A DNA stretch of 53,839 bases from an uncultured Thermoplasmatales archaeon (GTDB lineage Archaea > Thermoplasmatota > E2 > DHVEG-1): positions 1-53,839 of the forward strand of contig CAZQEU010000002.1 in assembly GCA_964592335.1 (NCBI GenBank). The letters are read 5' to 3'. This document shows, one piece after another, positions 6,321 through 28,204 of this stretch; the first letter of the stretch is position 1, and the number at the start of each line of letters is the position of its first letter. Both the position numbers and the translations under genes were made by a program. Below the pieces are notes generated by a model that made no database searches, was not told the DNA's origin, and was given only the letters and a program-made list of their open reading frames with translations.

Positions 6321-6734
6321 TTGTATATAGACTCAAATATTTTTGTATTTGCTGCAACAGACAAAAACAAAAAAGGAAAAAACTGCAGAAAAATAATTGA
6401 AATGATAAATGAAAACAAAATCGTATGTGCAGCATCTTATTTGGTGATAGATGAAGTAATATGGATTTTAAAAAAACATTTGGGAAGAAAAGATTCCATA
6501 AAAATTACAAAAGCTATACTTTCTCTGCCTATAAAATGGATTGACTTAGATAAAACCGTTGTAGTAAATATGGTAAATATATTAGAGAAAACAAAACTAG
6601 ATCCCAGAGATGCAACACATCTTGCGTCAATGGAAAAAATGGGTTTATCATCTATTATAAGTGAAGATTCTGATTTTGATAAAATAAAAGAAGTAAAACG
6701 TATTAATGCATCAACTTTAATAGAAAAATACTAA
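6321..6734 (+). CDS. vapC: PIN-domain ribonuclease toxin (VapC-like)
   Basis: YIDSN (Asp1), IDEV, DATHLA and SEDSDFD acidic residues in PIN order. TTG start. Confidence 0.8.
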
Positions 6735-8460: not shown

Positions 8461-8553
8461 GTTATACTTTCTAAATAATAGTATATAAGTGTTACTTGTA
8501 ATTTTGTCTTTTTGAAATTTTTACTAACTTATGAAAGATTATAATAAAAAATA

Positions 8554-8627
8554 CGGACCCATGGGGATTCGAACCCCAGTTACCGGCTCCGAAGGCCGGT
8601 AGGATATCCAGACTACCTTATGGGCCC
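8554..8627 (-). tRNA. tRNA-Arg (anticodon UCG)
   Basis: The reverse complement folds as a cloverleaf. Acceptor is GGGCCCA/TGGGTCC. Anticodon stem is CCGGC/GCCGG with loop CTTCGGA. T-arm is GGGGTTCGAATCCCC. No CCA is encoded. Confidence 0.9.
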
Positions 8628-8920
8628 ACTATTTTTTTACGAATCAACAAAGATGATATAAACTTATTTAACCAAGTTTTTTTAACATAATATATTAATT
8701 AACCTTGCAATTAAAGAAAGATATAAATAGCCATTAAAACATAACAAAAACAGCTGGATGAGATGCGCATAAAATGTTTACCTTCAGAAATTATGATATG
8801 TTAACAGCCATTAGTGTAAACGTTTGTAAAATATAAAAAATGATGTGAAGGGATGTGGATGCAATATAGGAGAGATAACACATATTTCCTTGCTTTATTT
8901 AGTATAAAGGAGAGGTTGAC

Positions 8921-11794
8921 TTGAGCAAGGATAAAGATACTAAAAATAAACTAAAGGAACACAAAAATATCGCTGAAGTTGAACGATTAGTTGACCAGAT
9001 AATAACCAAAAACAGAGAAAAACTAGATGAAGCATATAAAAAAGAAATCCAGTCAAATCGTTTTTCAATAAATAATAAAATCAACTCATCATTCTATCTC
9101 AAGAAAAATAAAGAAAAAAAGAAGAGTCATAAAGGAATTAGCAACAAAATAATCTCCCAAGCAAGAGCAAATCTAGGTGAAAAACCAATAAAAAAAGAGG
9201 CTTTCACACCTCCCTTTGAAACAAAAGAAAGCTTTAAACCAACAGAAAACAAAAACATGAGAAAAGACTCAGTTCAAAAACAAAAAAAAGAGAGCGAAAT
9301 AAAAGATGACACTACTTCTAAAATTCATGATTCAAAAGAGATATTGCAATCAGATGAATTTGAAGAAGTAATATCTGATTTTGAAAAAGAATCAAGCGTA
9401 GATATTAACAATGAAAAAAGCCCTGACTCAAAAATAATTGATGAGAATATAGAAAAAACTGATTTAGAGAAAAAAACAGTTAAAGAAAAAAATCATGCTG
9501 AGGATAAGTTAAAAGAATTAACTAAGAAACGAGGAATTTTTGATAAAAGAAAAGTTGGTTATAAGAGAAAAATTCCAAAAAACAAAAAAGAAACAGATGA
9601 AATCTTTGATGCTTTTTTAGATGATGACTCTTCTAAAATAGATGAAAACCTTAAAAATGATACTGCAGATGAGACAAACGACTCTTCTTTGTCAAATTCT
9701 GATGAAAATATAAAAGAAGAAACAAAAGAAGAGAGAGGAATATTTTTTGGTAGAAAAAACCCGAAGGAGGATAAAAAACATACACATGAAAAACAGCCTT
9801 CATATTCTTTTAAACCACGTTTTCATGTTGAAAATCATCCAGATGATAAAAGAGATTCTGATAGTCTAATTTTAGATGAGAAACTAAAAAATGAGGAAGC
9901 TGTCGTTGAAACTAAAGATGCTTTTGAAAATGTTGAGTTAAAAGCTCAGGAATATGCAAAAAAACACCTAAAAGATAAACCTAAACCTTCTGCAAATCCT
10001 TTTAAAAAAAGTGAAAACAAAAAAAACAATGAACTAAAAAATGAAGACTTTTCACTTGAAAACACAGATAACGATAGTGAGCATGTTTTTTTTGATGAGC
10101 ATGAGGATTCTTCTTTTACTGGTTGGAGCCCAAATATTTCAGACAAACAAAGAAAAGAGATTTTACTTCCAGCAACAGATAAACCTGAAGATAGGCCTGA
10201 ACTTTCACCTGAATCTGCACTTGGGGAAGTAGGTGATGTTGAACTTCCGAAAGAAGTTCTAAGTATGGACTCAGTTAAACTAAGTGATCTTGGTTTTTCT
10301 GAAAACGAATGGGATGAACTTGATTTTTATGCACTCAGTGAACCTTTTGCTTATGTTGAAATACTTCGTGAAAGAGAATCCCTTGAAAAATGTTATTTTT
10401 TGGTAGAAGTGGAGATAACTGAGGAGGAACAAGATACATTAAATTTTATCAGAGATACGCTTCTTAAAATGCATATTGAAACAGAGGATTTAGAAAAAAG
10501 TGGAGACGATGAATATCTTGCCTCCAGAGTAAAAAAAATAATCCAGGAGTATAATCTACAAATATCTGAGGAATCATTAAACAAGGTTCTGTATTATCTT
10601 TCAAAGACTTCTTTGGGGCTGTCAAAAATCGATCCATTGATGAATGATCCAAACATTGAGGATATCAGCTGTGATGGAGCAGATGTTCCTTTATTTTTGT
10701 ATCATCGTAAGTTCGGCTCTTTGAAAAGCAATGTATCATTTGATACTGAAGAAGAACTATCTTCTTTTATTTTTAAACTTGCACAGAAATGTGGTAAACA
10801 TATCAGTATCGCAGAACCAATTTTAGATGCAACTATGCCTGATGGGTCTCGTATTCAGATGACTCTGTCTGATGAGATAACTGCTCGAGGCAGTACTTTT
10901 ACTATCCGTAAATTTAGATCAGATCCTTTCAGCCCACCTGATCTTATAGAGTTTAACACTATGAGCTCTGAGATGGTGGCATATATGTGGCTTGCCATAG
11001 AAAATGGTATCAATATGCTGTTTGCAGGGGGAACAGCATCTGGTAAAACAACAGCTCTTAATGCACTTTCCTTATTTATTCCACCGGAAGCAAAGATTGT
11101 AAGTATTGAAGAAACTCGTGAGATTAATCTGCCTCATTCAAATTGGATACCTGGTGTTAGCCGTAGTGGTTTTGGATCGGTTGTTTCCGATAGGGTTGTA
11201 GGGCAGATTGATATGTATGATCTTATGAAGGCTGCTCTTCGTCAGCGTCCAGAGTATATTATTGTAGGTGAGATTCGTGGTCGTGAGGCATATGTTTTGT
11301 TTCAGGCTATGGCTACAGGTCATGCAACGTATAGCACGGTTCATGCGGATAGTGCCCATTCACTTATTCATCGTCTTGAGGGAAAACCAATTAACATACC
11401 TCGTGTAATGTTACAGTCTCTTGATGTAGTATCTCTTCATGTTACAACAAAAGTTAAAAACAAACGTGCTCGTCGTTGTAAGCAGATAATTGAGATTATT
11501 GATATTGATCCTACCACCAAAGAGATTCTTACAAATGAGGTATTTCGCTGGGATCCAGTTGAAGATAATTTTGTTTACTCTGGTAAAAGCTATGTCCTTG
11601 AGCGTGTTCGTGCTGAAAAAGATATGTCTAGAGAAGAAATAACTAGTGAGATTAAATCTCGTAAGAAACTTGTAGAACTTATGAACAAGAATAATATAAG
11701 AGAATTTAGAGGAGTAGCTCGTATTATTTCAAAATATCTGGATAACCCCTCTAATACATTTTCTATGATGGAGAAAGGTGCTATAAAAGAATGA
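8921..11794 (+). CDS. FlaI/GspE/VirB11-family type IV pilus assembly ATPase with an N-terminal low-complexity extension of about 450 aa
   Basis: Walker A is GGTASGKTT. Walker B is YIIVGEIRG. His box is GHATYSTVHA. The extension is Lys/Glu/Asp/Ser/Asn-rich. TTG start lies 5 nt after AAGGAGAGG. Confidence 0.85.
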   Translation: MSKDKDTKNKLKEHKNIAEVERLVDQIITKNREKLDEAYKKEIQSNRFSINNKINSSFYLKKNKEKKKSHKGISNKIISQARANLGEKPIKKEAFTPPFETKESFKPTENKNMRKDSVQKQKKESEIKDDTTSKIHDSKEILQSDEFEEVISDFEKESSVDINNEKSPDSKIIDENIEKTDLEKKTVKEKNHAEDKLKELTKKRGIFDKRKVGYKRKIPKNKKETDEIFDAFLDDDSSKIDENLKNDTADETNDSSLSNSDENIKEETKEERGIFFGRKNPKEDKKHTHEKQPSYSFKPRFHVENHPDDKRDSDSLILDEKLKNEEAVVETKDAFENVELKAQEYAKKHLKDKPKPSANPFKKSENKKNNELKNEDFSLENTDNDSEHVFFDEHEDSSFTGWSPNISDKQRKEILLPATDKPEDRPELSPESALGEVGDVELPKEVLSMDSVKLSDLGFSENEWDELDFYALSEPFAYVEILRERESLEKCYFLVEVEITEEEQDTLNFIRDTLLKMHIETEDLEKSGDDEYLASRVKKIIQEYNLQISEESLNKVLYYLSKTSLGLSKIDPLMNDPNIEDISCDGADVPLFLYHRKFGSLKSNVSFDTEEELSSFIFKLAQKCGKHISIAEPILDATMPDGSRIQMTLSDEITARGSTFTIRKFRSDPFSPPDLIEFNTMSSEMVAYMWLAIENGINMLFAGGTASGKTTALNALSLFIPPEAKIVSIEETREINLPHSNWIPGVSRSGFGSVVSDRVVGQIDMYDLMKAALRQRPEYIIVGEIRGREAYVLFQAMATGHATYSTVHADSAHSLIHRLEGKPINIPRVMLQSLDVVSLHVTTKVKNKRARRCKQIIEIIDIDPTTKEILTNEVFRWDPVEDNFVYSGKSYVLERVRAEKDMSREEITSEIKSRKKLVELMNKNNIREFRGVARIISKYLDNPSNTFSMMEKGAIKE

Positions 11795-13665
11795 GTAAAA
11801 AAGTTGCTATTTGCCCGGGTTGTCATACAAAAATAGATGTTGAAGGTGAACCTGGTCAAAAAGTAGAAGTTAAATGCCCAAGCTGCGGTAAAACCGGTAA
11901 TATCAGCTTTAAGGCTGAGCTCGATCAACTTGATTTTTATCCATTAAAAGAACCTTATGCCTATGCAAAAATTTTAAAAAACTCAGATACTCTTGAGAAA
12001 TTTTACAAAATAATTGAGCCTTATTTATCAGATGAAGAACAAAAAAAACTTAATTTCATCTGGGAGACACTAATGAAAACTTTCAGTATGAGGTTAGATG
12101 AACTTGACACAAAAAAAGCAGAGAGTTATCTTAATGAACAGGTTGAAAAGGTTATTGCTAACTATGAGATGGATGTAGATGAGGTTACTAAAAAGAAAAT
12201 TTTGTACTATATTAAACGTGAGTCATTAGGCTATGGAAAAATCGATCCTTTAATGCTTGATCCAAATATTGAGGATATTAGCTGTGATGGGCAGAATGTT
12301 CCAATATTTTTATATCATCGTAAATATGGTTCACTTAGAAGTAATATCGAATTTGGTAATGAAGAAGAGTTATCTTATTTTGTAGTTCGTCTTGCACAGA
12401 AATGTGGCAAACATATCAGTATCGCAGAGCCTATGCTTGATGCTACAATGCCTGATGGGTCTCGTATTCAGATGACTCTGAGCAGCGAGGTTACAACAAA
12501 AGGCTCTACTTTTACTATCCGTAAATTCCGCGCTGATCCTTTTACACCTCCTGATCTTATAGCACTCAACACTGTTTCATCTGAGATAATGGCGTATTTC
12601 TGGCTTGCAGTTGAAAATCGTGTAAATGCACTTATTGCAGGGGGAACAGCTTCAGGTAAAACAACGATTCTTAACGCTCTTTCATTGTTTATCCCACGTG
12701 ATGCAAAGATTGTAAGTATTGAAGAAACTCGTGAGATTAATCTACCTCATCCTAACTGGATACCTGGTGTTAGCCGTAGTGGTTTTGGAGAAATAGTCGC
12801 AGATAAGATGGTAGGCGAAATTGATTTATATGATCTTATGAAGGCTGCTCTTCGTCAGCGTCCTGAGTATATTATTGTAGGTGAGATTCGTGGTCGTGAA
12901 GCATATGTTTTGTTTCAAGCTATGGCTACAGGTCATGCAACGTATAGCACGGTTCATGCTGATAGTGCAAAAAGCCTTATTCATCGTCTTGAGGGAAAAC
13001 CAATTGATATACCAAGGATAATGTTGCAGTCTCTTGATGTAGTATCTATTCATATTACAACCCGTGTTAAAGGTAAAAGAGTACGTCGTTGTAAGCAGAT
13101 AATTGAGATTATTGATATTGATCCTACCACCAAAGAGATTCTTACAAATGAGGTATTTCGCTGGGATCCATTTGAGGATAAATTCATATACACCGGAAAA
13201 AGCTATGTTTTGGAAGGAATACGTGCTCGTTGGGATATTGGTAAAGAAGAGATTACTAAAGAGATTAGACAACGTGCAGAAATACTTGAATGGATGAAAG
13301 ATACAAATGTTAGAACCTTTTTAGAGGTTGCCAAGGCTATATCACGTTATGTTGATAACCCTGAGGATTTTTTGAAAAAACTAAGAAAAACTAAGAAAAA
13401 TAATAAAAAAACAAAACAAAAAAATAATAATACAAAGAAAACTAAGGATGAAAATAAAAAGGAGATATATAGTTCTGAGGATACTAAATCTGATTTAACT
13501 GTTTTGAATAGTGTTAATAAAAAAACTGCAGAGAAACTATATGAAAATAAGATTGAGACCGTTCAGGATTTAAAGAAACACTCAATTTCAGAATTAAGTA
13601 CTATGGGATTGAAAAAAGGAGAGGCAAAAAAGATAAAGAAAGAAATAAATAAGAGATATAAATAA
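11791..13665 (+). CDS. FlaI/GspE-family pilus ATPase paralogue with an N-terminal zinc ribbon and a C-terminal Lys-rich + helix-hairpin-helix-like tail
   Basis: CPGC-x17-CPSC at the N-terminus. Same Walker/His boxes as the upstream paralogue. The tail is KKxxK-rich followed by VNKKTAEKLYENKIETVQDL...ELSTMGLKKGEAKKI. Confidence 0.85.
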   Translation: MSKKVAICPGCHTKIDVEGEPGQKVEVKCPSCGKTGNISFKAELDQLDFYPLKEPYAYAKILKNSDTLEKFYKIIEPYLSDEEQKKLNFIWETLMKTFSMRLDELDTKKAESYLNEQVEKVIANYEMDVDEVTKKKILYYIKRESLGYGKIDPLMLDPNIEDISCDGQNVPIFLYHRKYGSLRSNIEFGNEEELSYFVVRLAQKCGKHISIAEPMLDATMPDGSRIQMTLSSEVTTKGSTFTIRKFRADPFTPPDLIALNTVSSEIMAYFWLAVENRVNALIAGGTASGKTTILNALSLFIPRDAKIVSIEETREINLPHPNWIPGVSRSGFGEIVADKMVGEIDLYDLMKAALRQRPEYIIVGEIRGREAYVLFQAMATGHATYSTVHADSAKSLIHRLEGKPIDIPRIMLQSLDVVSIHITTRVKGKRVRRCKQIIEIIDIDPTTKEILTNEVFRWDPFEDKFIYTGKSYVLEGIRARWDIGKEEITKEIRQRAEILEWMKDTNVRTFLEVAKAISRYVDNPEDFLKKLRKTKKNNKKTKQKNNNTKKTKDENKKEIYSSEDTKSDLTVLNSVNKKTAEKLYENKIETVQDLKKHSISELSTMGLKKGEAKKIKKEINKRYK

Positions 13666-13711
13666 AGTATAATAAGAGAAAAAATATAACTATACTTAAT
13701 AAAATACGCTG

Positions 13712-14581
13712 GTGAGGAGAATGCCGCTTAATAATTATGAGAAGTTATGCTATAGATGGTTTGGAAGATCAGCTGAAAATATAGCCTCAGACAGACTAAA
13801 AAGAGCTTTAGAGAGGGCACATATGGATATGCGTGCTGGAGCTTATCTTTCTTGGGTCTGGGTAAATACGATACTTGCAGCTCTTATTTCAACTGTTGTA
13901 ATTTTAAGTCTGATAGCTTTTTTAAACCTGGTTTTAGTTATTATAGTACTACTTTTATTTGCTCCTATTTTTGCAACTATTCTTACTTATTTCTATCTTA
14001 TGAATCTACCAGCTTCAAAAGCAAAAGCCCGTGGTAAAAAGATAGATATGCACTTGCCTTATGCACTAAATTTTATCTCTGCGATGAGCTCTGCAGGTAT
14101 TACTCCTACTGAAATATTTAAAAGCCTTTCTAAACAAAAGATATATGGTGAGATACGTGAAGAAGCTCTTTGGATTTATAGAGATGTTAGTCTTTTAGGT
14201 AGGGATATAATATCTGCTATTAAATCAAATATTGACCGAACGCCTTCTGAAAAATTTAAAGAGTTTCTGCAGGGTGCAATTGTTACAGTTCAGTCAGGCG
14301 GTGCTTTAAAACCTTATTTTATGACAAAAGCAGATCAATACACTCGTGAGAACCGTGTTGTACAAAAACAACTTATAGAAAGTCTTGGTATTATGGCAGA
14401 AGCATATGTTACTGCAGCTGTTGCAGGTGTTCTACTAATCATAATCATTCTTCCTTTGCTCATGATAATGTCTGGTGGTAAAGACCAGTTAATTATTATA
14501 TATGTCTTTGTCCTCTTGGTTGTACCTCTTATTCATTTTAGTTTTTCTTATGTTTTGTCTTCAATGTCATCTAGGGTGTGA
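13712..14581 (+). CDS. Pilus platform membrane protein with a single T2SSF domain (TadB/FlaJ N-half-like)
   Basis: TM segments flank a cytoplasmic T2SSF-like domain (LPYALNFISAMSSAGITPTEIFKSL...GRDIISAI). GTG start, or ATG at 13721. Confidence 0.75.
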   Translation: MRRMPLNNYEKLCYRWFGRSAENIASDRLKRALERAHMDMRAGAYLSWVWVNTILAALISTVVILSLIAFLNLVLVIIVLLLFAPIFATILTYFYLMNLPASKAKARGKKIDMHLPYALNFISAMSSAGITPTEIFKSLSKQKIYGEIREEALWIYRDVSLLGRDIISAIKSNIDRTPSEKFKEFLQGAIVTVQSGGALKPYFMTKADQYTRENRVVQKQLIESLGIMAEAYVTAAVAGVLLIIIILPLLMIMSGGKDQLIIIYVFVLLVVPLIHFSFSYVLSSMSSRV

Positions 14582-15546
14582 TAAAAGTGGCCGATAATAA
14601 AAGTAAAAATAGTGAAATGAAAAAACAGGGTTTTCTGAAAAGATTGTCTATGACTGGGCAGATGTCAAGATTTATTGTTTATCTTGCGGCAGGGATACCA
14701 TCTATTATCTGTATTTTTCTTGCGATACTTTCTCTTACATCTTTTTTGAATTATACAGAATTTACTTTTGGTGATAGTACTATAAAACTTTTTACTTGGT
14801 ATGACTTCATTATCTTTGCACTTATTATTTTTACTGGTGTTTATGGGATATATGAATGGTTTAGATTACGTCGCGTTCGTATGATTGATAAACGTTTTCC
14901 TGATTTTGTACGTGATCTTGCTGAATCTAGACGTGCAGGTATGACTTTTACTAAGGCTATTATGTACTCGGCAAAGGGAAACTATGGTGTGCTTACAGAT
15001 GAAATTAAAAAGATTTCTATGCAGATATCATGGGGAAATAGTGTTGAGAATGCACTAAGGGCTTTTGCAAAAAGAGTTAAAACCAAGCTTGTTATTCGTA
15101 CTATTTCACTTATAATTGAGGCTAGTAGAAGTGGAGGAAATGTTGCTGATGTTTTAGATGCAGCTAGTAAAGATGCACGTGAAATTAAACTCTTGGATTC
15201 AGAGCGACGTGCAAGTATGCTTTCATATGTTGCAGTAATATATGTTGCTATGTTTGTTTTTCTACTTATTATGATAGTTCTTTCAAAGAGTCTAATACCA
15301 AACATGGTAGGTGAAGGCGCAGCTGGATTAAAATCAGCGGGGGCCCTAGGAGGATCTTCGGGTAACCAAATTTCTCAGGATGAAATAACACAGCTTTTCT
15401 TTATAGCAAGTATCATCCAGGGTGGTTTCATGGGTATTGTTGCTGGTGTTTTTGAAGAAGGAAATGTTATCTCTGGAGTAAAACATGCGTTCTTTATGAT
15501 ACTTATCAATTGGATTGCATTGAAATTCATAGTAGGTGGAGTGTGA
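14578..15546 (+). CDS. Pilus platform membrane protein with a single T2SSF domain (TadC/FlaJ C-half-like)
   Basis: FPDFVRDLAESRRAGMTFTKAI...GNSVENALRAFAKR... plus TM segments. GTGA overlap with the upstream gene. Confidence 0.75.
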   Translation: MIKVADNKSKNSEMKKQGFLKRLSMTGQMSRFIVYLAAGIPSIICIFLAILSLTSFLNYTEFTFGDSTIKLFTWYDFIIFALIIFTGVYGIYEWFRLRRVRMIDKRFPDFVRDLAESRRAGMTFTKAIMYSAKGNYGVLTDEIKKISMQISWGNSVENALRAFAKRVKTKLVIRTISLIIEASRSGGNVADVLDAASKDAREIKLLDSERRASMLSYVAVIYVAMFVFLLIMIVLSKSLIPNMVGEGAAGLKSAGALGGSSGNQISQDEITQLFFIASIIQGGFMGIVAGVFEEGNVISGVKHAFFMILINWIALKFIVGGV

Positions 15547-15578
15547 TATAATAGTTTTGAGGGGGGTTTTATCTAGAT

Positions 15579-19817: not shown

Positions 19818-19826
19818 TAAGATACA

Positions 19827-22739
19827 ATGATAAAAACAAATATATTTAAAAGCAACATAGCTGTAAGCCAGGTTTTATCGACGATATTAGTGTTATCTAT
19901 AGTTCTATCCTGTGTTGCTGGAATTATGGCTTGGGGGGTTCCTTATATTGAAGAAAATAAAATGAAAAGCCAAAGGGAGACTATTTTTAGTAACTTTGAG
20001 GTTTTTGACAATACTATTGCTAATTTACTGGTAGATGGCCCTAATTCAGCTGACACAGGAGTTATATCAAGCAATGTTGATGAAGGTGCTATTAATATTA
20101 ACTCGTTTGATTATTTCGTTGAGGGTTCTACAGACAGATTGGTTCTTTGGTATTCATATCATAATGGGACTAATTTTACAGTAGAAGGTTTAGATGATGC
20201 TGATGATACTTTTAGTGTGATGCCTACAGGATCAGATTTGGTTTTTGGTGATTGGGCATATGAAAGCTATTCTCTTAGAAAAAAATTAACTATCAATAGT
20301 GAATATGTCGATGAGGATCTATCAAATTTTCCGGTTCTTGTTAGATCAACGGTATTTACTGCAACAGATGATAATAAGGATATTATATTTGCAGATGAGT
20401 CTGGTACAAAACTTGATTATGAAATTGAAAGTTTAGACGAGGGTTCCGGTTATTTAATTGCGTGGGTAAATATACCTTATGTTTCTTCAACAGAAGATAC
20501 TGTCTTTTATCTTTATTCTAATAATGCAGAGGAAGACGATCCTCAAGAAAACTCAGAAGCTGTTTGGGATTCAGATTATATATTGGTCCACCACTTTGAA
20601 GAAACAGCAACTACTACAGTTGATGATTCTACATCTAATCAGAATGATGGTAACTTTTATGGTTTAACAGACATGTTTCGTCTTTTTTATATTAATGGAG
20701 CATTAGATTTTAATGGATCTAGTAACTATATTGATCTAGGTGATATCTCTGTTTTAGATAGCGTTGATGATTTAACTATTGAAACATTGATATTCCCAAG
20801 ACAGGAAACATATTCGGATAGTACCTCTTTAGTTGGACAAGTTAATTATTCTAATCCTAATCTATTTGGCAAATGCTGGCTTACATTAGATACAGGACTA
20901 AAGTGGGGATTTACAATAGATCCCTCAGCAGGTGATCCAAGAACTTATTGGGCCGATACATCCATTCAAAATTCTTCCTTTCAATATTTAGTTACAACTT
21001 TTGATGATAAAGGTGGTTCAGATGGTTCTTTAAACTTTTATCTAGATGGTGAATCAGATGGATCAAATGATAATATTGAAAAAGATTTAACATCAAGCGA
21101 TGAGGATTGGAAAGTAGGCTGGAATGGCAATATCTTTTTTAATGGTACATTAGATGAGATTAGAATTTCAAAGACTATCCGTGATCCATCATGGATAAAA
21201 GCAAACTACAACAATTTATTCAAGTACGATTTCGTTGAACAAGGATATGCTGTTAATCAAGGAGGAGCGCTTTTCATAGATGATGCATCAATCTATCATC
21301 TCGATCCCGGGAAAGAAGAAGATATAGATACCAAAACTTATGTTTCTATATATGATACTTATAAATATTCTCAATCTTTTAAATGCCCTTTTGAAAATGA
21401 CGAACTTGACAAAATAAAATTGTATATCGGAAAAGTAGGAAATATCTATGATAGTCTAACTGTGTCGATATATGGTGATTCTGGTGGATCCCCTGACCCA
21501 ACTGACAATTTAGGCTCTTTTGAGATTTACTCTGATAATGTTTCAACAACTATGGATTGGGTAGAATGTGATTTTTACCAAGATATTCCTCTTTTGCAAG
21601 ATACTACCTATCACATAGTGGTAAACACTAGTAGCTCTACTGGGTCTTCAGGATTTTATAAATGGCGTTATGAAAATCCTTCTGTCTATGAGGACGGATA
21701 TGCAAAATATTATGATGGATTTAATTGGGTTTATATAGAAAGTGATGATGAGTATGACTTATACAAACGTATTGTTTATAAAAACTATGATAGTCCCTCT
21801 GCTCCAAAGATAAGCGGAAGTATTCCAATACGTTCTAATCCCTATGGTTATTCGGGGGTTAAATATAATTTTTTGTTAAACAACGAAGATATGTTTGGTG
21901 ATAACTATTGGTATAAAGCCGATTGGGGTGATGGAACTACAACTGGCTGGTGTGAATCAGGAACCACTTTTTATACAAATCATACTTGGACAAAAACAGG
22001 GTTGTTTAACCCTGTGTTTAAAATTAGAAAGAAGATAGACAGTACCGATGTTTTTATTGAAAATGAGTTTGATAATGAAACGTTGTCTAATCTTTATATT
22101 CATGAAGGTATTTCATCACCTGTTAATATTTTAGATTATGGAAATCCTCAAATAACAGATGGCAGTATAATTACAACAAATATTAACTTAAATGGAACTG
22201 TATTAATCAACTTATTTAATGATGCATATCCAGCTGAATTTGGTCCACAATATATGGGAAAGATACCATTTGCTAGGATATGGGTCTTTGATCTTGGATC
22301 TATTGAATATACAGTACCATCTATTTCAGGTGTAAATACTGTTTCTCTTCAAAATGGTGCGGTTTTATCAAATGGTTTTTCTGGTTTTTCTAATAGTTTT
22401 ATAAAAAATGAACCAGCTTTTGTGGAAACAGATAAGGCTATTGCTTTACGATTGATACAAACAAAGGGTATTGGAGCTATGGCTGGTTCCGGAAGATATA
22501 AGATAAATGTCGTTCATAAAGCGTCTTATAATTGTGAAAAACCAACGCTTTATTTTGTCGATAATGTATCAAATTTTAAGATGCAGTTTTCCGGTTCAAA
22601 TTCAGACATATGGCTAAATTATTTTTTAGATAATTATGATTTTGGAATACAGGGTGATACCTTATTTTATAAGCACAATGAAAGAATATTGCTTCTCGAC
22701 AATTCTCTTTTTGAATATTATGTGGGGGGGATTTATTGA
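19827..22739 (+). CDS. Giant (970 aa) pilin-like surface protein with DUF2341 + LamG (concanavalin-like lectin) + PKD-like insert
   Basis: N-terminus is NIAVSQVLSTILVLSIVLSCVAGIMAW. DUF2341 is LRKKLTINSEYV..LSNFPVLV..DIIFADESGTKLDYEIES...AWVNIPYV...FYLYSNN. LamG is LDFNGSSNYIDLGD...LDEIRISKTIRDPSWIKANYNN. A WGDG motif is present. Confidence 0.8.
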   Translation: MIKTNIFKSNIAVSQVLSTILVLSIVLSCVAGIMAWGVPYIEENKMKSQRETIFSNFEVFDNTIANLLVDGPNSADTGVISSNVDEGAININSFDYFVEGSTDRLVLWYSYHNGTNFTVEGLDDADDTFSVMPTGSDLVFGDWAYESYSLRKKLTINSEYVDEDLSNFPVLVRSTVFTATDDNKDIIFADESGTKLDYEIESLDEGSGYLIAWVNIPYVSSTEDTVFYLYSNNAEEDDPQENSEAVWDSDYILVHHFEETATTTVDDSTSNQNDGNFYGLTDMFRLFYINGALDFNGSSNYIDLGDISVLDSVDDLTIETLIFPRQETYSDSTSLVGQVNYSNPNLFGKCWLTLDTGLKWGFTIDPSAGDPRTYWADTSIQNSSFQYLVTTFDDKGGSDGSLNFYLDGESDGSNDNIEKDLTSSDEDWKVGWNGNIFFNGTLDEIRISKTIRDPSWIKANYNNLFKYDFVEQGYAVNQGGALFIDDASIYHLDPGKEEDIDTKTYVSIYDTYKYSQSFKCPFENDELDKIKLYIGKVGNIYDSLTVSIYGDSGGSPDPTDNLGSFEIYSDNVSTTMDWVECDFYQDIPLLQDTTYHIVVNTSSSTGSSGFYKWRYENPSVYEDGYAKYYDGFNWVYIESDDEYDLYKRIVYKNYDSPSAPKISGSIPIRSNPYGYSGVKYNFLLNNEDMFGDNYWYKADWGDGTTTGWCESGTTFYTNHTWTKTGLFNPVFKIRKKIDSTDVFIENEFDNETLSNLYIHEGISSPVNILDYGNPQITDGSIITTNINLNGTVLINLFNDAYPAEFGPQYMGKIPFARIWVFDLGSIEYTVPSISGVNTVSLQNGAVLSNGFSGFSNSFIKNEPAFVETDKAIALRLIQTKGIGAMAGSGRYKINVVHKASYNCEKPTLYFVDNVSNFKMQFSGSNSDIWLNYFLDNYDFGIQGDTLFYKHNERILLLDNSLFEYYVGGIY

Positions 22740-24700
22740 AAAAGATTTTTAGTAATTCTTTGGCTGTTTCACAGGTCGTGGGTTTTATTTTATCTCTTTC
22801 ACTTATGAGTCTTGTTGCGACTTCTTCAATTCTTGTTGTAAATACTATAATCGATGAAAAAACTTCTTCAGCAGCAGAGATTCATGCTAGGGATATTGCA
22901 AATAAAATTTCAGATGCAATTATTAATGTTTGTTTATTTAAGGAGAATTATCCATCTGCTAATTATTCAACTACGGTTGATATTCCATATCAATTAATTG
23001 ATTATTTTAATTACTATATTGAGCTAAATAATAACTTTGTATTTATTAATTCCACAGATGGTTTAGTAAATGTGAAAAACTCGCTTTATAATTGCTCGGG
23101 TAGGATTGGCTGGGATATACAAGGTAGAGTAGATGGTGCAGACAAGTTGGTTATTAGTTGTAACAGCAGTAATTATGTTTATAAATTTGATTTTGGAACC
23201 AGCAATTCATCAAGTGCAAAGGGTTATACTAGAATATCTGAGAATTGTGATAACTCGGTTTGGTATACTACTTCAGGGGTTTGGAAATATAGAGTACCTA
23301 TTTTTGTTTCTAATCCTTTAAGTGAGCCGATAGATGATTATGCAGTTCTAATTCAGCTCAAAGATAAAAATTTTAATCATATATTAGTAAATGAGAACTT
23401 AAGTGATATTAGGTTTTTTGATGATGCTGGCTCTGAGCTTTACTACTGGATTGAAAACTGGTATTCAGATACTACAAAAACTTCAAGGATTTGGGTAAAT
23501 GTGTCATCGATACCTGTTGATGGATGTATGATACATATGTATTTTGGGAGATCTGCAGATAGTAGTAATCAGTATCATGATGGATCGAAAACATTTTTGT
23601 TTTTCGATAACTTTAGTAAAAATACTATGAATAAATGGGATCTTTACTATTATAACGCTGATTCTAGGATAAATATCATGGATGGTAGTCTAGTTTTAAA
23701 AAATGGTGCTGCAGTTATTTCAAAAACATATATCAATCCAGATAGTACACCTTACATACTCGAAACAAAATCAAAATCAATAAGTGAAACAGAAATTGGA
23801 CAAGGTTATGATAATCCAATAGAAGCTAGTATTTTTGCAAGAAAAACAAATGGCTCTTTTAACCCACCTTATCATCATGCTTCTGTTTTTTCTTCAGGAA
23901 CATTCGAATATCGTCCAACTGATGCTCATTATTTTGATAATGCAATTGTATATTATCAAGATGGTAAGTGGAACAATTATACTGATTATGAAACACAAGG
24001 TATAAATCAAGGATGGTATAGGCTAAAATACATATTAAATCACTCAGATGATGTGGCTGCAAGGTATTTTTATGATAACTTTGTTCTAGATGGAGAACCA
24101 AAATCTATTTCATACCGTGGTACAAAAGATGGAGCGTTTGGTCTTTGCATAGCAAATACTGAATATATTGATGAGGATTTTAATATCACAGCATATTATG
24201 ATTGGATTTTTGCAAGAAAATTCGTGTCAAATCCTAATGCTGTTTCTAGTAGGGAAGAATCAGAACCTATTGCATATGTTGGCGCGGTTCAATCAGAGGA
24301 TTATGGATGGGATACTGCTTCTGATAATATTTTATCAAAATCATCAGGTGGAACAGGAGTTGGAGATGATTTAGTGTATAGTAATGATAATAATGTTCAT
24401 TTCGAAGTTAATAATCTATCTGATTCTAAATATTATAGCATATTTTTTACAATAGGTGATTATGATACTCCACAAGATATAGAGGGTATGTCTATTGATA
24501 TTACTCATTCTGAAGGTACTGAATTATTAAGCTTTTCAGATTGTTCTGAAAACATACCTCATAAAAAACGTTGGATTTCAAATCTACAAACAGCTTCAGG
24601 AGATTTTATCTTTAGTTTTTCAAGCAGTAATAAATGGGCTATAAATGAAATAACAATAATGGAAGGAGAAAGAATTATATGGCTAGAAGGAAAAAATTAA
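22736..24700 (+). CDS. Pilin-like surface protein (654 aa) with DUF2341 and a concanavalin-like domain
   Basis: N-terminus is NSLAVSQVVGFILSLSLMSLVATSS. DUF2341 is WKYRVPIFVSN...DIRFFDDAGSELYYWIENW...IWVNVSSIP...MYFG, followed by LFFDNF...KWDL. TTG start follows GGGGGGG and overlaps the previous stop. Confidence 0.75.
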   Translation: MKKIFSNSLAVSQVVGFILSLSLMSLVATSSILVVNTIIDEKTSSAAEIHARDIANKISDAIINVCLFKENYPSANYSTTVDIPYQLIDYFNYYIELNNNFVFINSTDGLVNVKNSLYNCSGRIGWDIQGRVDGADKLVISCNSSNYVYKFDFGTSNSSSAKGYTRISENCDNSVWYTTSGVWKYRVPIFVSNPLSEPIDDYAVLIQLKDKNFNHILVNENLSDIRFFDDAGSELYYWIENWYSDTTKTSRIWVNVSSIPVDGCMIHMYFGRSADSSNQYHDGSKTFLFFDNFSKNTMNKWDLYYYNADSRINIMDGSLVLKNGAAVISKTYINPDSTPYILETKSKSISETEIGQGYDNPIEASIFARKTNGSFNPPYHHASVFSSGTFEYRPTDAHYFDNAIVYYQDGKWNNYTDYETQGINQGWYRLKYILNHSDDVAARYFYDNFVLDGEPKSISYRGTKDGAFGLCIANTEYIDEDFNITAYYDWIFARKFVSNPNAVSSREESEPIAYVGAVQSEDYGWDTASDNILSKSSGGTGVGDDLVYSNDNNVHFEVNNLSDSKYYSIFFTIGDYDTPQDIEGMSIDITHSEGTELLSFSDCSENIPHKKRWISNLQTASGDFIFSFSSSNKWAINEITIMEGERIIWLEGKN

Positions 24701-25170
24701 TTTCAACTAATAATGGTCAAATGCATGTCATGGAGGCAGTTATAGTTGCAGGTTTAATTTTTTCAGCTTTATTTTTTATAAGTAATATGGAAGTTTCTAG
24801 TTATACTACAATTGAAAAGCAAAATAAGCTAAAGCAGTTAGGTGCAAAAATATTAGAAAACGCTGAGGCAAAAGAAGATTCTACTGGAAACTATGATAAT
24901 TTTTTAATTTATTGTGTAGAAGAGAATATAAATTATTTGTATTATGATCTGGTTTCAAGCTTGCCAGAAGGTACTTTGTTTCGTTTGACAGTTGTAAATA
25001 TGTCTAAATTGTTTCATGATAATTCTGCATCTTATAATGATTGTATTTATACCAGTATTGGAACTGATATATGGGTTGATGAAGAAACAAGGGTTTCAAG
25101 AATTATAGCTTTTAATGGTTTTATCTATGAGATTGTATTGCAACTGTGGCTTAATACGGGAGGTGATTAA
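24679..25170 (+). CDS. Small pilin-like protein (163 aa) with a class III signal peptide
   Basis: MARRKKLISTNNGQMHVMEAVIVAGLIFSALFFI has a basic N-region, a G-Q junction, Glu, then a hydrophobic helix (PF04021-like). GGAAGGAG lies upstream. Confidence 0.65.
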   Translation: MARRKKLISTNNGQMHVMEAVIVAGLIFSALFFISNMEVSSYTTIEKQNKLKQLGAKILENAEAKEDSTGNYDNFLIYCVEENINYLYYDLVSSLPEGTLFRLTVVNMSKLFHDNSASYNDCIYTSIGTDIWVDEETRVSRIIAFNGFIYEIVLQLWLNTGGD

Positions 25171-25214
25171 ATCTGAAATATAATCTTATTAAAAAACTTG
25201 TAAATAAAAACTCT

Positions 25215-25631
25215 TTGTATGATAAGGATGATGCTCAGATCGTTCTAGTGGGTGGAATAATTATTACAATTGCAATTCTTAGTTTTGGTGTTATAATTAC
25301 TAGTCTTAGTGATGTGACCGAAACTATTGATAAAGAATCTTATTTGCTGTATAATTACAATAATATCCGTAAGGAATTTGGTTTGGTATTAAAGCAAAAC
25401 CTTCAACAGAATATGGATAATGATTATTTAGATTCAGATATTATTGGTTATTACTTTAATGATTCAAGGGACATACTTGTTTTCGCCGAATCCTCTCATG
25501 GTGTTTTCTTTGATGCAGAGCTTATTAGAATCGTTTATAAGGGAGAAAACATAAACGGCTTGGAAGCTAGGTTAACTCTTAGTAACGAGTATGATTATAT
25601 ATCTGAAGAGGTTACTTATTATTTTGGATAA
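25215..25631 (+). CDS. Small pilin-like protein (138 aa or more) with a class III-like N-terminus
   Basis: ...KDDAQIVLVGGIIITIAILSFGVIITS. The start is uncertain. GGGAGGTGA (25158-25166) sits 6 nt before an in-frame CTG at 25173, and the frame is open back to 25167. Confidence 0.55.
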   Translation: MYDKDDAQIVLVGGIIITIAILSFGVIITSLSDVTETIDKESYLLYNYNNIRKEFGLVLKQNLQQNMDNDYLDSDIIGYYFNDSRDILVFAESSHGVFFDAELIRIVYKGENINGLEARLTLSNEYDYISEEVTYYFG

Positions 25632-25867
25632 ATTGTACTCTTTGTTATTCTTATAAGTAAGGCTTAAATAATATGTGCATATAATATTAATATAATGGAA
25701 TGTTGGGTGAAAGTGGGATGAGCTTTAAGCTTGATAGGCTATTTGGTAATGTTATTTTACCATTTTGTCATTTTTTTACGAAGATTATATATATCATGGT
25801 TGACAGAGTGCATCATATAACTTTAGCATTAAACTTAGATATATACTCCGTTAAGGGGTGAGATAGG

Positions 25868-28204
25868 ATGAGAAAAAGAATAATAAAAAATAGATATGGT
25901 GTTACGCCACAATTCGAAGCAATTTTTGTTGTTATAACCGTTGTATCAGCGACAGCTTTAGGAGCAGTTGCTATAGGTAATTTTTTTAGTGGCTCAAACG
26001 TTGAAAAAAAGAGTCTTGAAGCTACAGCATTAGAGGTCTCTTCTCTTTTAACCCAAACCAGAGGGCAGAGCTTAGATGGTAGTCAAGCCTGGTTTGAAAA
26101 TGTTGAACATGTTAGCAGTATTGGTTTAAAAGCAGATTTAGGGGAAGAAACATGGCTACATGTGTTATATGATGTAGGGAGCTCTTCACCAGAGGAACAG
26201 GAAAATAGTAAACCAACTGTACCTGAGGTTACAGGTGAGAATGGTGAAGTAGATAAAGATTTAACTTTTACAGCGGTATCTGAAGATGTAGATGGAGATC
26301 AAATTAGATATGTATGGATTTGGGGTGATGGAGATTCAGAAGTAAGCAATTATTATGAGTCTGGTGAAAGCGATAGTCGTACTCATTCTTATTCTAATCA
26401 AGGTGGTTATACTGTAAAAGTAAGAGCCCAAGATGATGGTAACCCTGTAATGGAGAGCACTTATGCAACTATTAGTATAGAAGTTACTGATAGTAGTTCT
26501 TCAAATAATTTTCCAAATAAACCAAGTACGCCAGTTATAGTAAATCAATTTGGTGGGATTGTTAGTCCTCCCCCTGATGTGCCGAAAGCATTTTCTATTT
26601 CAGTTATTGCAAATGATACTGCGTACAATTATGGGACTGATACAACAGATCCTGATGGGGATAAATTAGAGTATGGCTGGGATTGGAATGATGATGATAA
26701 CGTGGATGGTTGGGATGATAATAAAGGGTCTTATTATGATTCAGGTGCTACAATTTCAACTGGGCATACATACAACCAATATGGTTTTTATAACCTAAAA
26801 GTTAAAGCAAGAGATACACCTGCTGGTGATAGTAGTGCTTATTCAGATTCGATTATTGTCTTTAATGATAATCGCCCTGATAAACCTGTAACTCCTTTTT
26901 CTAATGCAGCTTCTTTTTCTGCTGGAAGTTCTTATTATTTTTTTACATATACAAGTGATCCGGATGATGATTATTTGTATTATAAATTCAGGGTTCAGAA
27001 TGAAGATACTGGTGAAATATTAGAGCCTTCTGGTTGGTCACTTGTGCCCAAGGAAAGTGCTCCAAGTGGTGGTCCACCAGGGAATGAGTATGTTTATTCA
27101 GAAGAATATGTTATACCCCTTGATTGGAGTGGATGTAGCGCTAGTATTAGATCAAAGGCTAAGGATGTTACTCTTCATGAGGACTATGGTGTTGTTGAAG
27201 GACTTGAAAGTCTATGGTCTGATAGTCTTGTTATATCTATAGAAGAAGAACCAAGTGGCCCAGGTGGAGGAGGCACTCCAACTGGGTGTTGTGCTTGGGG
27301 CAAGGGTGGAAGGTGTATTGGTTATTATAACGAAGATGGTCATTGCTTAGTTAACCAAAATCCTTGTTTTCTTGCGGGTAGTAAAATATTGATGGCGGAC
27401 CGATCTGTTAAAAATATTGAAGAGATACAAGTTGGAGATACTATTCTTAATTATGATACAGAAAATGCTGTTTTTGCAAAGGATAGGGTGACTAAGGTAT
27501 TTCACCATGAACCTGACGAGCTTATAGCGGGTTATTATCTTATCATAAATGAGGAGCTAAAAGTTACACCGAACCATCCTTTGTATGTAGATGGTGAATG
27601 GGTAAAAGCAGAAGATCTAGAAATCGGTGATTCTTTGTCAAGTGGCGGCAAAATATTTTCAATTGAGAAAATAAATGAAAGAGCACCAACGTATCATATG
27701 ATAACAGAATTGTATCACAACTATGTAATAGTATTTGAAGAAGACTATGTAATTGCGATAAATGGTGATCCGGTTGGAGTATATGTAGTAGAAGCTGAAA
27801 AGGAAGTAAACCCTGTTGGAGATTATATACTTGGTGACTATGAAGAAGAACCCTCTGAAAACAGTGAAATATCTCAGCTTAACCAGGCAACAAGTATATC
27901 TTACAGCTCAGTACTTAGCATGAACAAAGTATATTCATTATCAGAAATACCCTATTCTAAGTTCAAGGAGATATTCAATCTAGATGAATTTGTAGATGTA
28001 AGCATACAGATTACTAGAATAGATCAGGAAGACCAAGAATTCTTATCATATCATCCAGATAACGGCAGATCATCTGAAAATGCTGATCAGGTAGCAGTTC
28101 ACTCTGAAAACGTCATAATATTTGCAAGACAACAAACATCCAGCTATTCACAGCAGTACTCTGATAGGTATGTACCATGTGAGCTTGAGATATCAGTTTA
28201 TTAA
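25868..28204 (+). CDS. Pilin-like surface protein (778 aa): class III-like N-terminus, about 3 PKD-like domains, Cys-rich linker, Hint domain, C-terminal region of about 146 aa
   Basis: N-terminus is KNRYGVTPQFEAIFVVITVVSATALGAVAIG. PKD motifs are WIWGDGDSE...YTVKVRAQDDG and YGWDWNDDD...YNLKVKARD. Hint blocks are CFLAGSKILM / VTPNH / YVIAIN. Confidence 0.8.
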   Translation: MRKRIIKNRYGVTPQFEAIFVVITVVSATALGAVAIGNFFSGSNVEKKSLEATALEVSSLLTQTRGQSLDGSQAWFENVEHVSSIGLKADLGEETWLHVLYDVGSSSPEEQENSKPTVPEVTGENGEVDKDLTFTAVSEDVDGDQIRYVWIWGDGDSEVSNYYESGESDSRTHSYSNQGGYTVKVRAQDDGNPVMESTYATISIEVTDSSSSNNFPNKPSTPVIVNQFGGIVSPPPDVPKAFSISVIANDTAYNYGTDTTDPDGDKLEYGWDWNDDDNVDGWDDNKGSYYDSGATISTGHTYNQYGFYNLKVKARDTPAGDSSAYSDSIIVFNDNRPDKPVTPFSNAASFSAGSSYYFFTYTSDPDDDYLYYKFRVQNEDTGEILEPSGWSLVPKESAPSGGPPGNEYVYSEEYVIPLDWSGCSASIRSKAKDVTLHEDYGVVEGLESLWSDSLVISIEEEPSGPGGGGTPTGCCAWGKGGRCIGYYNEDGHCLVNQNPCFLAGSKILMADRSVKNIEEIQVGDTILNYDTENAVFAKDRVTKVFHHEPDELIAGYYLIINEELKVTPNHPLYVDGEWVKAEDLEIGDSLSSGGKIFSIEKINERAPTYHMITELYHNYVIVFEEDYVIAINGDPVGVYVVEAEKEVNPVGDYILGDYEEEPSENSEISQLNQATSISYSSVLSMNKVYSLSEIPYSKFKEIFNLDEFVDVSIQITRIDQEDQEFLSYHPDNGRSSENADQVAVHSENVIIFARQQTSSYSQQYSDRYVPCELEISVY
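27365..27763 (+). other. Hint domain, 133 aa, Cys500 to Asn632 of the 778-aa protein
   Basis: Aligns block for block with the Hint domain at 16002-16412. It ends ...VIAIN followed by Gly. The penultimate residue is Ile rather than His. Confidence 0.75.

Follow-up and report, generated by a model that had tools for sequence, protein, structure and literature searches.

Intein-like Hint domains in pilin-like proteins of a probable type IV filament locus from a Thermoplasmatales archaeon

Contig CAZQEU010000002.1 (assembly GCA_964592335.1), from an uncultured Thermoplasmatales archaeon, carries at positions 8921-28204 a ten-gene locus that resembles archaeal type IV pilus systems and encodes Hint domains in two of its pilin-like proteins. 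The whole 53.8-kb stretch analysed (53,839 nt) is called the window below, and the locus always means 8921-28204. We consider it probable that the locus encodes a euryarchaeal clade-2-like type IV filament machine with an adhesin-rich cassette of pilin-like proteins that hosts self-excising, mobile Hint domains. The motor and platform are of an ordinary archaeal kind; the new element is a family of Hint domains of bacterial intein-like (BIL) type in pilin-like subunits. This combination is apparently undescribed. Full-text literature searches returned nothing on Hint or BIL domains in archaeal pilins, and neither Hint nor intein domains are mentioned in two surveys of archaeal type IV filament systems, Makarova 2016 (PMC4858521) and Sivabalasarma & Albers 2026 (bioRxiv 10.64898/2026.04.22.720090). 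In databases the proteins bear only the automatic name 'Hint domain-containing protein'. A preliminary description of the window had been unable to match the combination with Hint domains to any described system, and the two surveys and the full-text searches leave that statement standing.

The locus comprises ten open reading frames (ORFs), all on the + strand, separated by small gaps or overlapping by 4 to 22 bp, with overlaps between four of the gene pairs. By content it divides into two ATPases, a platform whose halves are encoded by two genes, and six proteins with prepilin-like N-termini. Pfam places T2SSE in genes 1 and 2, one T2SSF domain in each of genes 3 and 4, Hint or PT-HINT in genes 5 and 10, DUF2341 in genes 6 and 7, Laminin_G_3 in gene 6, and PKD in gene 10. 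The ten packed, co-directional genes of the preliminary description, with their two ATPases and two single-T2SSF proteins, are therefore all present at the coordinates given below, as are its large adhesin-like prepilin-type proteins. These large proteins number four (1412, 970, 654 and 778 amino acids (aa); genes 5, 6, 7 and 10), where that description had counted three giants. Of the modules it had named, DUF2341, LamG and PKD were recovered, PKD significantly in the 778-aa protein, and no FN3 family was detected. An archaellum, which it had excluded, is rejected here as well: archaellins and the accessory genes ArlF/ArlG and ArlCDE/X/H (FlaC-H) were not found in the window, and both ATPases, at 418-419 bits (ATPase 1 419), fall below the 550-bit cutoff of the NCBIfam FlaI equivalog model. 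The features of the locus are as follows, with | in a motif marking a predicted cleavage point or domain border.

8921-11794, + strand: gene 1, ATPase 1, 957 aa; T2SSE, E 2e-34; FlaI/afGspE-family core at about 478-940
11791-13665, + strand: gene 2, ATPase 2, 624 aa; T2SSE, E 6e-35; Zn-ribbon, core, Lys-rich linker and helix-hairpin-helix (HhH) domain
13712-14581, + strand: gene 3, N-terminal half of the FlaJ/TadC platform, 289 aa; one T2SSF, E 3e-18
14578-15546, + strand: gene 4, C-terminal half of the FlaJ/TadC platform, 322 aa; one T2SSF, E 1e-21
15579-19817, + strand: gene 5, 1412 aa; prepilin-like N-part 1-141 (DUF7289 sub-threshold at the N-terminus), Hint 142-278 (PT-HINT, E 7e-10), about 860 aa of repetitive beta-rich modules, C-part about 1140-1412
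16002-16412, + strand: Hint of gene 5, 'ET|CFLAGTKV ... TPNH ... LLVHN|A'; Cys1, TPNH, HN, +1 Ala
17276-18152, + strand: tandem repeat inside gene 5, 393 bp, 2.2 copies, 99% identical (Tandem Repeats Finder score 1740)
19827-22739, + strand: gene 6, 970 aa; N-part (DUF7289 26.7 bits, gathering score 27), DUF2341 (E 3e-6), LamG_3 (Laminin_G_3, E 1e-11), choice-of-anchor-R (choice_anch_R, E 1e-8), PKD-like motif, shared C-part
22736-24700, + strand: gene 7, 654 aa; prepilin-like N-terminus (DUF7266 sub-threshold), then DUF2341, E 1e-17
24679-25170, + strand: gene 8, small pilin-like protein, 163 aa; motif 'G|QMHVMEAVIV'
25215-25631, + strand: gene 9, small pilin-like protein, 138 aa; motif 'DDA|QIVLVGGIII', matched by a FlaFind-like motif; Kyte-Doolittle 2.8; no Pfam family match
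25868-28204, + strand: gene 10, 778 aa; N-terminus 'YG|VTPQFEAIF', PKD modules (E 5e-11), Hint 500-634 (PT-HINT, E 3e-11), conserved C-terminal domain of about 140 aa
27365-27769, + strand: Hint of gene 10, 'NP|CFLAGSKI ... TPNH ... VIAIN|G'; +1 Gly

The two Hints, each of about 137 aa, are, to judge from their sequence, type-A BIL-like. Type-A BIL domains, from Amitai 2003 and Dassa 2004 as summarised in PMC4031507, have the Hint fold, an N-terminal Cys and a C-terminal His-Asn, and lack a nucleophile at +1; they can splice by aminolysis, and cleavage products dominate (PMC4031507). Both Hints of the locus contain the canonical class 1 intein marks Cys1 and block B TxxH, and they end in HN in gene 5 and in IN in gene 10. 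The best sequence match of the gene 5 Hint in the PDB is the bacterial intein-like domain 2LWY of C. thermocellum (E 3e-9). By Foldseek, the best fold matches for the model of P0121, a homolog described below, are 6Y75, 6TMM and 2LWY, all of them BIL domains (Tetrahymena BIL2 among them) that rank ahead of mini-inteins and Hedgehog. Like type-A BIL domains in general, the Hints are about 135 aa long, carry Cys1, a TxxH block and His-Asn with neither a +1 nucleophile nor an endonuclease, and lie in secreted or surface proteins that are variable and often hold several copies. They differ from known members of that type in their archaeal host, in their fixed site within a pilin-like scaffold of a type IV filament locus, and in recent copying between paralogs. 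A canonical intein was considered and rejected, as Ala (gene 5) and Gly (gene 10) stand at +1, a position where Cys occurs in 0 of the 130 complete Hints among the matches listed.

The family behind these numbers is large. Queried with the first 300 aa of gene 5, a word-indexed search for homologs returned only 3 matches, and an exhaustive HMMER search with P0121 returned 7315 at E <= 1e-3; at E <= 1e-30 the family comprises at least 150 clusters at 50% identity. The set used for counting consists of 152 sequences among the matches listed, 151 of them distinct and one of them gene 5, and it includes two matches from the word-indexed search. Within this set a pilin-like hydrophobic N-terminus occurs in 124/152, the combination of such an N-terminus with a Hint starting at residue 100-200 in 96/152, and two to seven Hints per protein in 45/152. 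Among the 130 complete Hints, Cys1 is present in 129 (99%) and the terminal HN in 121 (93%). The following residue is non-nucleophilic in 117 and Ser or Thr in 13, the counts including Ala 31, Asp 25, Lys 12, Gly 10, Pro 9, Ser 8, Thr 5 and Cys 0. Because both ends of the domain are conserved, selection appears to act for full excision and not for N-terminal cleavage alone. Judging from the names of their metagenome-assembled genomes (MAGs), the hosts belong to Thermoplasmatota, and we take them, from SG8-52 names, to be probably the sediment group Marine Benthic Group D (MBG-D).

Position and distribution of the Hints suggest mobility. In what follows, L-numbers denote related MAG loci and P-numbers homologous proteins from relatives. 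The Hint site in the gene 5 family is fixed at 'YWLN(D/E)T|C', and orthologs of gene 5 with a Hint at the same site were found in 8 loci. An empty version of the site is seen in P0129, which reads 'IYWLNDT|GLS' where P0121 reads 'IFWLNDT|C...VHN|EGL', and gene 6 is itself a Hint-less paralog of gene 5. In L010, two tandem Hint-pilin paralogs (13753-15672 and 15689-17677) contain a stretch of 433 bp that is 100% identical, while the proteins are about 41% identical and have no nucleotide similarity outside this stretch. The 433 bp include 21 nt of the YWLNDT junction and the whole Hint, and stop exactly after the codon for the terminal Asn. The pattern implies that the Hint was copied very recently, apparently with neither an endonuclease nor homology on the 3' side. 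Several Hints from other hosts are 75-86% identical to each other while their host proteins are <50% identical, sometimes with the Hints at different positions. Copy number varies as well: against the single Hint of gene 10, its ortholog P0140 (L001, 845 aa), whose C-terminus is homologous, contains three in tandem, the gene 5 ortholog of L006 (13718-17041) has about three, and family member P0175 has seven. Because of the L010 copy, the identity of Hints across unlike hosts, the variation in copy number, the decayed C-termini of some Hints and the homolog with an empty site, the domain has the look of an intein-like element spreading through conversion, with no endonuclease involved.

The proteins that host the Hints appear to be built on a common scaffold. 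Genes 5 and 6 are paralogs that have in common an N-part of about 140 aa and a C-part of about 230-270 aa, with a variable middle, and the C-part of gene 5 is homologous to those of gene 6 and P0121. P0121 (508 aa) consists of N-part, Hint and C-part and nothing else, and in P0129 (389 aa) the N-part runs directly into the C-part with no Hint between them. Pfam found nothing in the C-parts of genes 5, 6, 7 and 10. An AlphaFold2 model of P0121 (predicted local distance difference test (pLDDT) 79.8, predicted template-modelling score (pTM) 0.74) lays out a helix at 8-66, strands at 76-142, the Hint at 147-282, a disordered linker at 284-307 and a beta-rich C-part. According to this model the N-part and C-part may pack into one scaffold, with Hint and adhesin modules inserted at one permissive site. 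The tandem repeat of gene 5 translates into near-identical 131-aa protein repeats and would fit a recent duplication or length variation of the adhesin region.

Class III signals are plausible in all six cassette proteins. Each begins with a short polar or basic N-terminus followed by Ala or Gly and by one hydrophobic segment (Kyte-Doolittle 2.2-2.8), and has no later transmembrane segment. One or two of the six fit a strict FlaFind-like regular expression. Across the gene 8 family (19 sequences; homologs P0275-P0294), the residues at +1 and +6 from the predicted cleavage site are invariably Gln and Glu, giving 'A|QMxVLE', and most representatives of the gene 5 family start with '[KRDN]A|VSxV'. 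Glu at +6 is also found in gene 10-type proteins and recalls Glu5 of bacterial pilins. An AlphaFold2 model of gene 8, built with database homologs, has a pLDDT of 80.8, an N-terminal helix at 11-64 and a 4-stranded sheet; it shares with the P0121 model an N-terminal helix of 55-60 residues that is followed by a beta domain.

The assembly module that precedes the cassette is clearly recognizable. Walker A (GTASGKT), Walker B (YIIVGEIR) and the Asp box are intact in both ATPases. Residues 1-470 of ATPase 1 (window 8921-10330) form a low-complexity extension rich in K, E, D, S and N (17% K, 13% E); the orthologs of ATPase 1 measure 838-1439 aa, precede ATPase 2 in all related loci and likewise start with a long stretch of low conservation, so that the extension has evidently been retained. 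ATPase 2 begins with a CxxC..CxxC Zn-ribbon at residues 7-34 (window 11809-11892), a weak match to Zn_ribbon_4 in Pfam, and ends, after the Lys-rich linker, in an HHH_5 domain at residues 568-620 (window 13492-13651) that scores 27.4 bits against a gathering score of 27. Domains of the HHH_5, HHH_2, HHH_3 or RNA_pol_A_CTD type occur in most long ATPase 2 homologs. Such a domain could bind DNA; it is mentioned neither in Makarova 2016 (PMC4858521) nor in the 2026 survey. The best PDB sequence match of ATPase 2 is A. fulgidus GspE (afGspE; 2OAP, 474 bits), followed by FlaI at 298 and CpaF at 157, and weak precomputed matches to PilB3_N were seen among ATPase homologs. The cores of ATPases 1 and 2 are 70% identical to each other, and in a neighbour-joining tree their orthologs form two separate sister clades; therefore the duplication is older than the group, and both copies have been kept in tandem. 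Against the NCBIfam FlaJ model (555 positions), gene 3 covers 5-235 and gene 4 covers 295-538. The platform is truly split, because the two genes align to the first and the second half of FlaJ, respectively. Orthologs of gene 3 in related loci are 55-78% identical.

Scanning genomes and looking up contigs yielded about 20 related loci, whose gene order we compared by BLAST synteny. Homologs of ATPase 2 at 70-85% identity number in the hundreds and, where named, come from Thermoplasmatales or Thermoplasmatota MAGs. The order ATPase1-ATPase2-TadC(N)-TadC(C) holds in all Thermoplasmatota loci long enough to judge, except L003, which has no adjacent TadC. More distant relatives with one ATPase have a fused TadC in Methanocellales and Methanosarcinales and a split TadC in Aenigmatarchaeota. 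The full cassette was found in eight distinct loci (the window, L001/L004, L006, L008, L010, L012, L014 and L031), in the order Hint pilin, (paralog), DUF2341 pilin, two small pilins, Hint/PKD protein. Gene 7 is its most conserved member (26-38% identical in L001, L006, L007, L010 and L031), and gene 9 has orthologs in L001, L010 and L031. Rpr2 and then S19e genes lie directly downstream of gene 10 in the window, and in L031 three more genes separate the cassette from Rpr2/S19e. In L013 (13710-14200) the ribosomal-protein (S19e) block comes directly after TadC, in L009 (6037-8400) a single unidentified 415-aa ORF stands between TadC and the S19e block, and in L016 (4339-5900) unrelated genes follow TadC. 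Because it is absent from these three loci, the 12.6-kb cassette is best described as a variable insert, or indel, between a stable TadC module and Rpr2/S19e.

Published systems already contain most of the core. Makarova 2016 (PMC4858521) described for clade 1 one ATPase, two TadC, two large DUF2341 proteins proposed as tip adhesins, at least five minor pilins and EppA, and linked DUF2341 to PilY-type adhesins. The same survey shows many clade-2 loci with two tadC-like genes, and lists as Clade_2 both the A. fulgidus ATPase and an Aciduliprofundum locus with the order pilin-ATPase-TadC-TadC-ATPase. In the 2026 survey (bioRxiv 10.64898/2026.04.22.720090) a split platform is the hallmark of System 1, and System 2 has extended ATPases and large adhesins. 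The split platform is native to archaeal clade 1, clade 2, 4A and 4B systems (PMC4858521, bioRxiv 10.64898/2026.04.22.720090), so no bacterial affinity is needed, and a bacterial Tad origin of the split was rejected. The preliminary description had judged the platform more like bacterial TadB/TadC than archaeal and the core layout unusual; neither judgement is supported, since two tadC genes define archaeal System 1 and are common in clade 2, and the split platform, the two ATPases (in Aciduliprofundum) and the large DUF2341 pilins were already catalogued (PMC4858521, bioRxiv 10.64898/2026.04.22.720090). Because published systems hold all three, the core is a variant of catalogued archaeal systems. 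Like bacterial Tad/Flp machines (TadA/CpaF, TadB, TadC), it has a platform of two single-T2SSF proteins and an ATPase belonging to the same superfamily, but its ATPases are far closer to afGspE and FlaI, and there is no Flp-type pilin or secretin. Bacterial type IVa minor pilin and PilY1 tip complexes likewise combine several pilin-like proteins with large adhesins in one operon; here, in contrast, the adhesin modules are fused into the pilin-like proteins, and no PilY1 sequence or fold match was found.

The closest precedents seem to lie in clade 2, to which we provisionally assign the locus from its best matches, its ATPase relatives and described precedents, rather than from a tree with clade references. 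As in clade 2/System 2, the ATPases are of arCOG01817 type, closest to afGspE and extended by extra N- and C-terminal domains; large adhesin-like proteins are present, and the ATPase/TadC module occurs with or without adjacent pilins. Two ATPases with two half-size TadC proteins in a Thermoplasmatota-related host also recall the Aciduliprofundum locus, although there the ATPases flank TadC and belong to different sub-branches, whereas here they are adjacent sister paralogs. Unlike published clade-2 loci, the present one has an ATPase 1 N-terminus of about 470 aa, a Zn-ribbon and HhH domain on ATPase 2, and a six-gene cassette with DUF2341, LamG and PKD pilin fusions and Hint domains.

In the mechanism we propose, the paired paralogous ATPases would act as hexamers that, with the two-part FlaJ/TadC platform, extract and polymerise the prepilin-type proteins, as expected by homology. 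A class III signal peptidase whose gene lies elsewhere would have to cleave off their leader peptides. Genes 8 and 9 may supply core or minor subunits, and genes 5, 6, 7 and 10 would provide pilin scaffolds fitted with DUF2341, LamG, PKD or repeat modules. By analogy with minor pilins, PilY1 and the clade-1 model, the most likely role of the large proteins is in a tip or priming complex for attachment. The Hint of gene 5 sits at the junction of the scaffold halves and is expected to excise itself after export. The predicted chemistry starts with a thioester at Cys1 and cyclisation of Asn at the C-terminus, followed by either ligation through aminolysis or a two-chain product. The Hints would thus represent a convertible mobile cassette, which the scaffold tolerates because they remove themselves.

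Several observations weigh against this interpretation. The filament is known here only as genes, the joint folding of N-part and C-part only through the pTM of a model, and self-excision only through conserved residues. Pilin_N (PF07790) and the class III signal family (PF04021) match none of the six cassette proteins, and when the N-termini were scanned at E <= 10 all pilin-related hits, to the haloarchaeal families DUF7289, DUF7266, DUF7288 and DUF7261, were sub-threshold; a literature search found no paper that mentions these four families. The prepilin-like N-termini of the preliminary description thus stand as an architecture common to all six, but not as members of the established signal families. 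Foldseek searches of the PDB with the P0121 and gene 8 models gave no significant match to a solved pilin: the matches to P0121 are all Hint domains, and those to gene 8 are insignificant ribosomal S3-like alpha/beta folds. As the preliminary description had noted, no prepilin peptidase (PibD/FlaK/EppA, peptidase A24) is found among the genes of the window, which also has no obvious abundant small major pilin, and a search of it for further small pilin-like ORFs returned none. In L003, L009, L013 and L016 the pilin cassette is not adjacent to the ATPase pair, and therefore linkage of module and cassette is not obligatory. Regarding the Hints, that of gene 10 has Ile in place of the penultimate His and so departs from the type-A BIL definition, the terminal HN has been lost in P0124, P0126 and L014, and the identical 433-bp pair of L010 comes from one metagenome assembly.

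Other readings of the machine deserve consideration. It is unlikely to be an Epd-type System 1 (Makarova clade 1) pilus, as in methanogens (Methanococcus maripaludis and relatives) and Thermococci, instead of a clade-2 one. The hallmark split platform agrees with that assignment, the two large DUF2341 proteins and at least five class III minor pilins of the clade-1 model would correspond to genes 6 and 7 and the other four, and genes 8 and 9 have Gln at +1, a residue typical of EppA substrates. System 1, however, has a single ATPase of another clade where there are two here, EppA and MinD in the locus, major pilins of about 70 aa, other host lineages and no reported Hint. Neither EppA nor MinD/FleN is in the locus, and no MinD/FleN gene was found in the window; the closest solved ATPase is afGspE, and outside Thermoplasmatota the nearest relatives come from Methanocellales, Methanosarcinales and Aenigmatarchaeota instead of class I methanogens or Thermococci. 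A pair of tadC genes is found in many clade-2 loci as well, and Aciduliprofundum, which is related to Thermoplasmatota, has been assigned to that clade. A reading that we hold to be rather unlikely, though not negligible, dispenses with a long pilus and sees a short pseudopilus or surface-display scaffold, bindosome-like or resembling a type II secretion system, that anchors large binding proteins. The six class III-type proteins do resemble minor pilins or cargo in a window with no small, high-copy PilA-like gene, a gingipain-family secreted protease gene nearby would suit surface-bound scavenging, and the 2026 survey argues that the type IV filament machines of archaea have been widely 'functionalised' by means of class III binding proteins. 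The missing major pilin is uninformative, however, because the genes for major pilins often lie elsewhere in clade-1 and clade-2 systems (PMC4858521), and Pfam detected no substrate-binding-protein family in the six proteins. A role in uptake or transfer of DNA, instead of adhesion or besides it, is very unlikely. It draws on the HhH domain behind the Lys-rich linker of ATPase 2 and its counterparts in most long homologs, but HhH domains also mediate protein contacts, the cassette proteins resemble adhesins, and the window showed no nuclease, ComEC-like channel or Ced-like gene.

The Hints, too, can be viewed differently. They may be domesticated switches, in which N-terminal cleavage yields two-chain adhesin-pilins whose adhesin part is, for example, thereby detached, activated or released, or in which the C-terminal domain of gene 10 is set free as by PT-HINT in polymorphic toxins; we regard this as possible but doubtful. 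It would account for the constancy of the Hint site across orthologs of loci whose ATPases are only 72-84% identical, PT-HINT is the best Pfam model, and P0124 and P0126, which lack the terminal HN, retain Cys1 and TPNH and could still cleave at the N-terminal side. It is at odds with the conservation of Cys1 (99%) and HN (93%) among the matches listed, which points to full excision, with the existence of Hint-less homologs and paralogs, and with copy numbers that differ between orthologs (one in gene 10, three in P0140). For gene 10 the polymorphic-toxin version was rejected: its C-terminal domain is conserved, being homologous to those of P0140, P0161, P0224 and P0143, and the genes that follow are Rpr2 and S19e with no immunity gene among them, which makes a toxin unlikely. 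We consider it quite unlikely that the Hints serve as extracellular ligation devices or, in a related view, that they are cassettes homing into 'YWLNDT' without an endonuclease. By analogy, the Cys1 thioester may offer an extracellular energy source independent of ATP, and, through an isopeptide or ester bond, the N-part of the pilin may be linked to a nucleophile such as lysine on a neighbouring subunit, an S-layer protein or another component of the envelope. Tetrahymena BIL2 performs a ligation of this kind with ubiquitin-like domains (PMC8616854). Ligation, if true, would mean a covalently cross-linked or anchored archaeal filament without a sortase, and homing would mean that adhesin modules are shuffled among pilin genes.

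Under the interpretation we favour, a clade-2-like machine with mobile, self-excising Hints, intein-like autoprocessing, apparently not linked before to type IV filament subunits, would be conserved here in a large uncharacterised family. The locus would provide a naturally occurring Hint that has to fold and work extracellularly, once exported, and a possible case of intein-like mobility free of endonuclease. It would also add a well-conserved machine with paired ATPases and a split platform to archaeal cell-surface biology, in a phylum for which the 2026 survey needed a special search mode (bioRxiv 10.64898/2026.04.22.720090).

Genes for S19e, L31e, eIF6, Rpr2 and SepF in the flanks of the locus mark the host as archaeal. 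The gingipain-family gene mentioned above (Peptidase_C25, 4528-5973, + strand) lies upstream of the locus and has a syntenic counterpart in L001; sediment archaea of MBG-D typically secrete proteases of the gingipain type. The interval from the SepF/PUA genes to the beginning of the locus holds a stand-alone PIN-domain gene (6321-6734, + strand) and a tRNA-Arg(TCG) gene (8553-8628, - strand). Farther upstream, a gene at 917-1870 (- strand) encodes a protein of 317 aa that matches no Pfam family and bears a double CxxC Zn-finger at its N-terminus; the gene adjoins an AAA_14/DUF4143 ATPase gene (2399-3568, - strand) that is syntenic in L001. On the other side of the locus, the gene at 38605-39897 (- strand) fuses an OMPdecase/HUMPS-type domain to an RraA-like aldolase domain and is adjoined by a gene for a DUF362/4Fe-4S protein.

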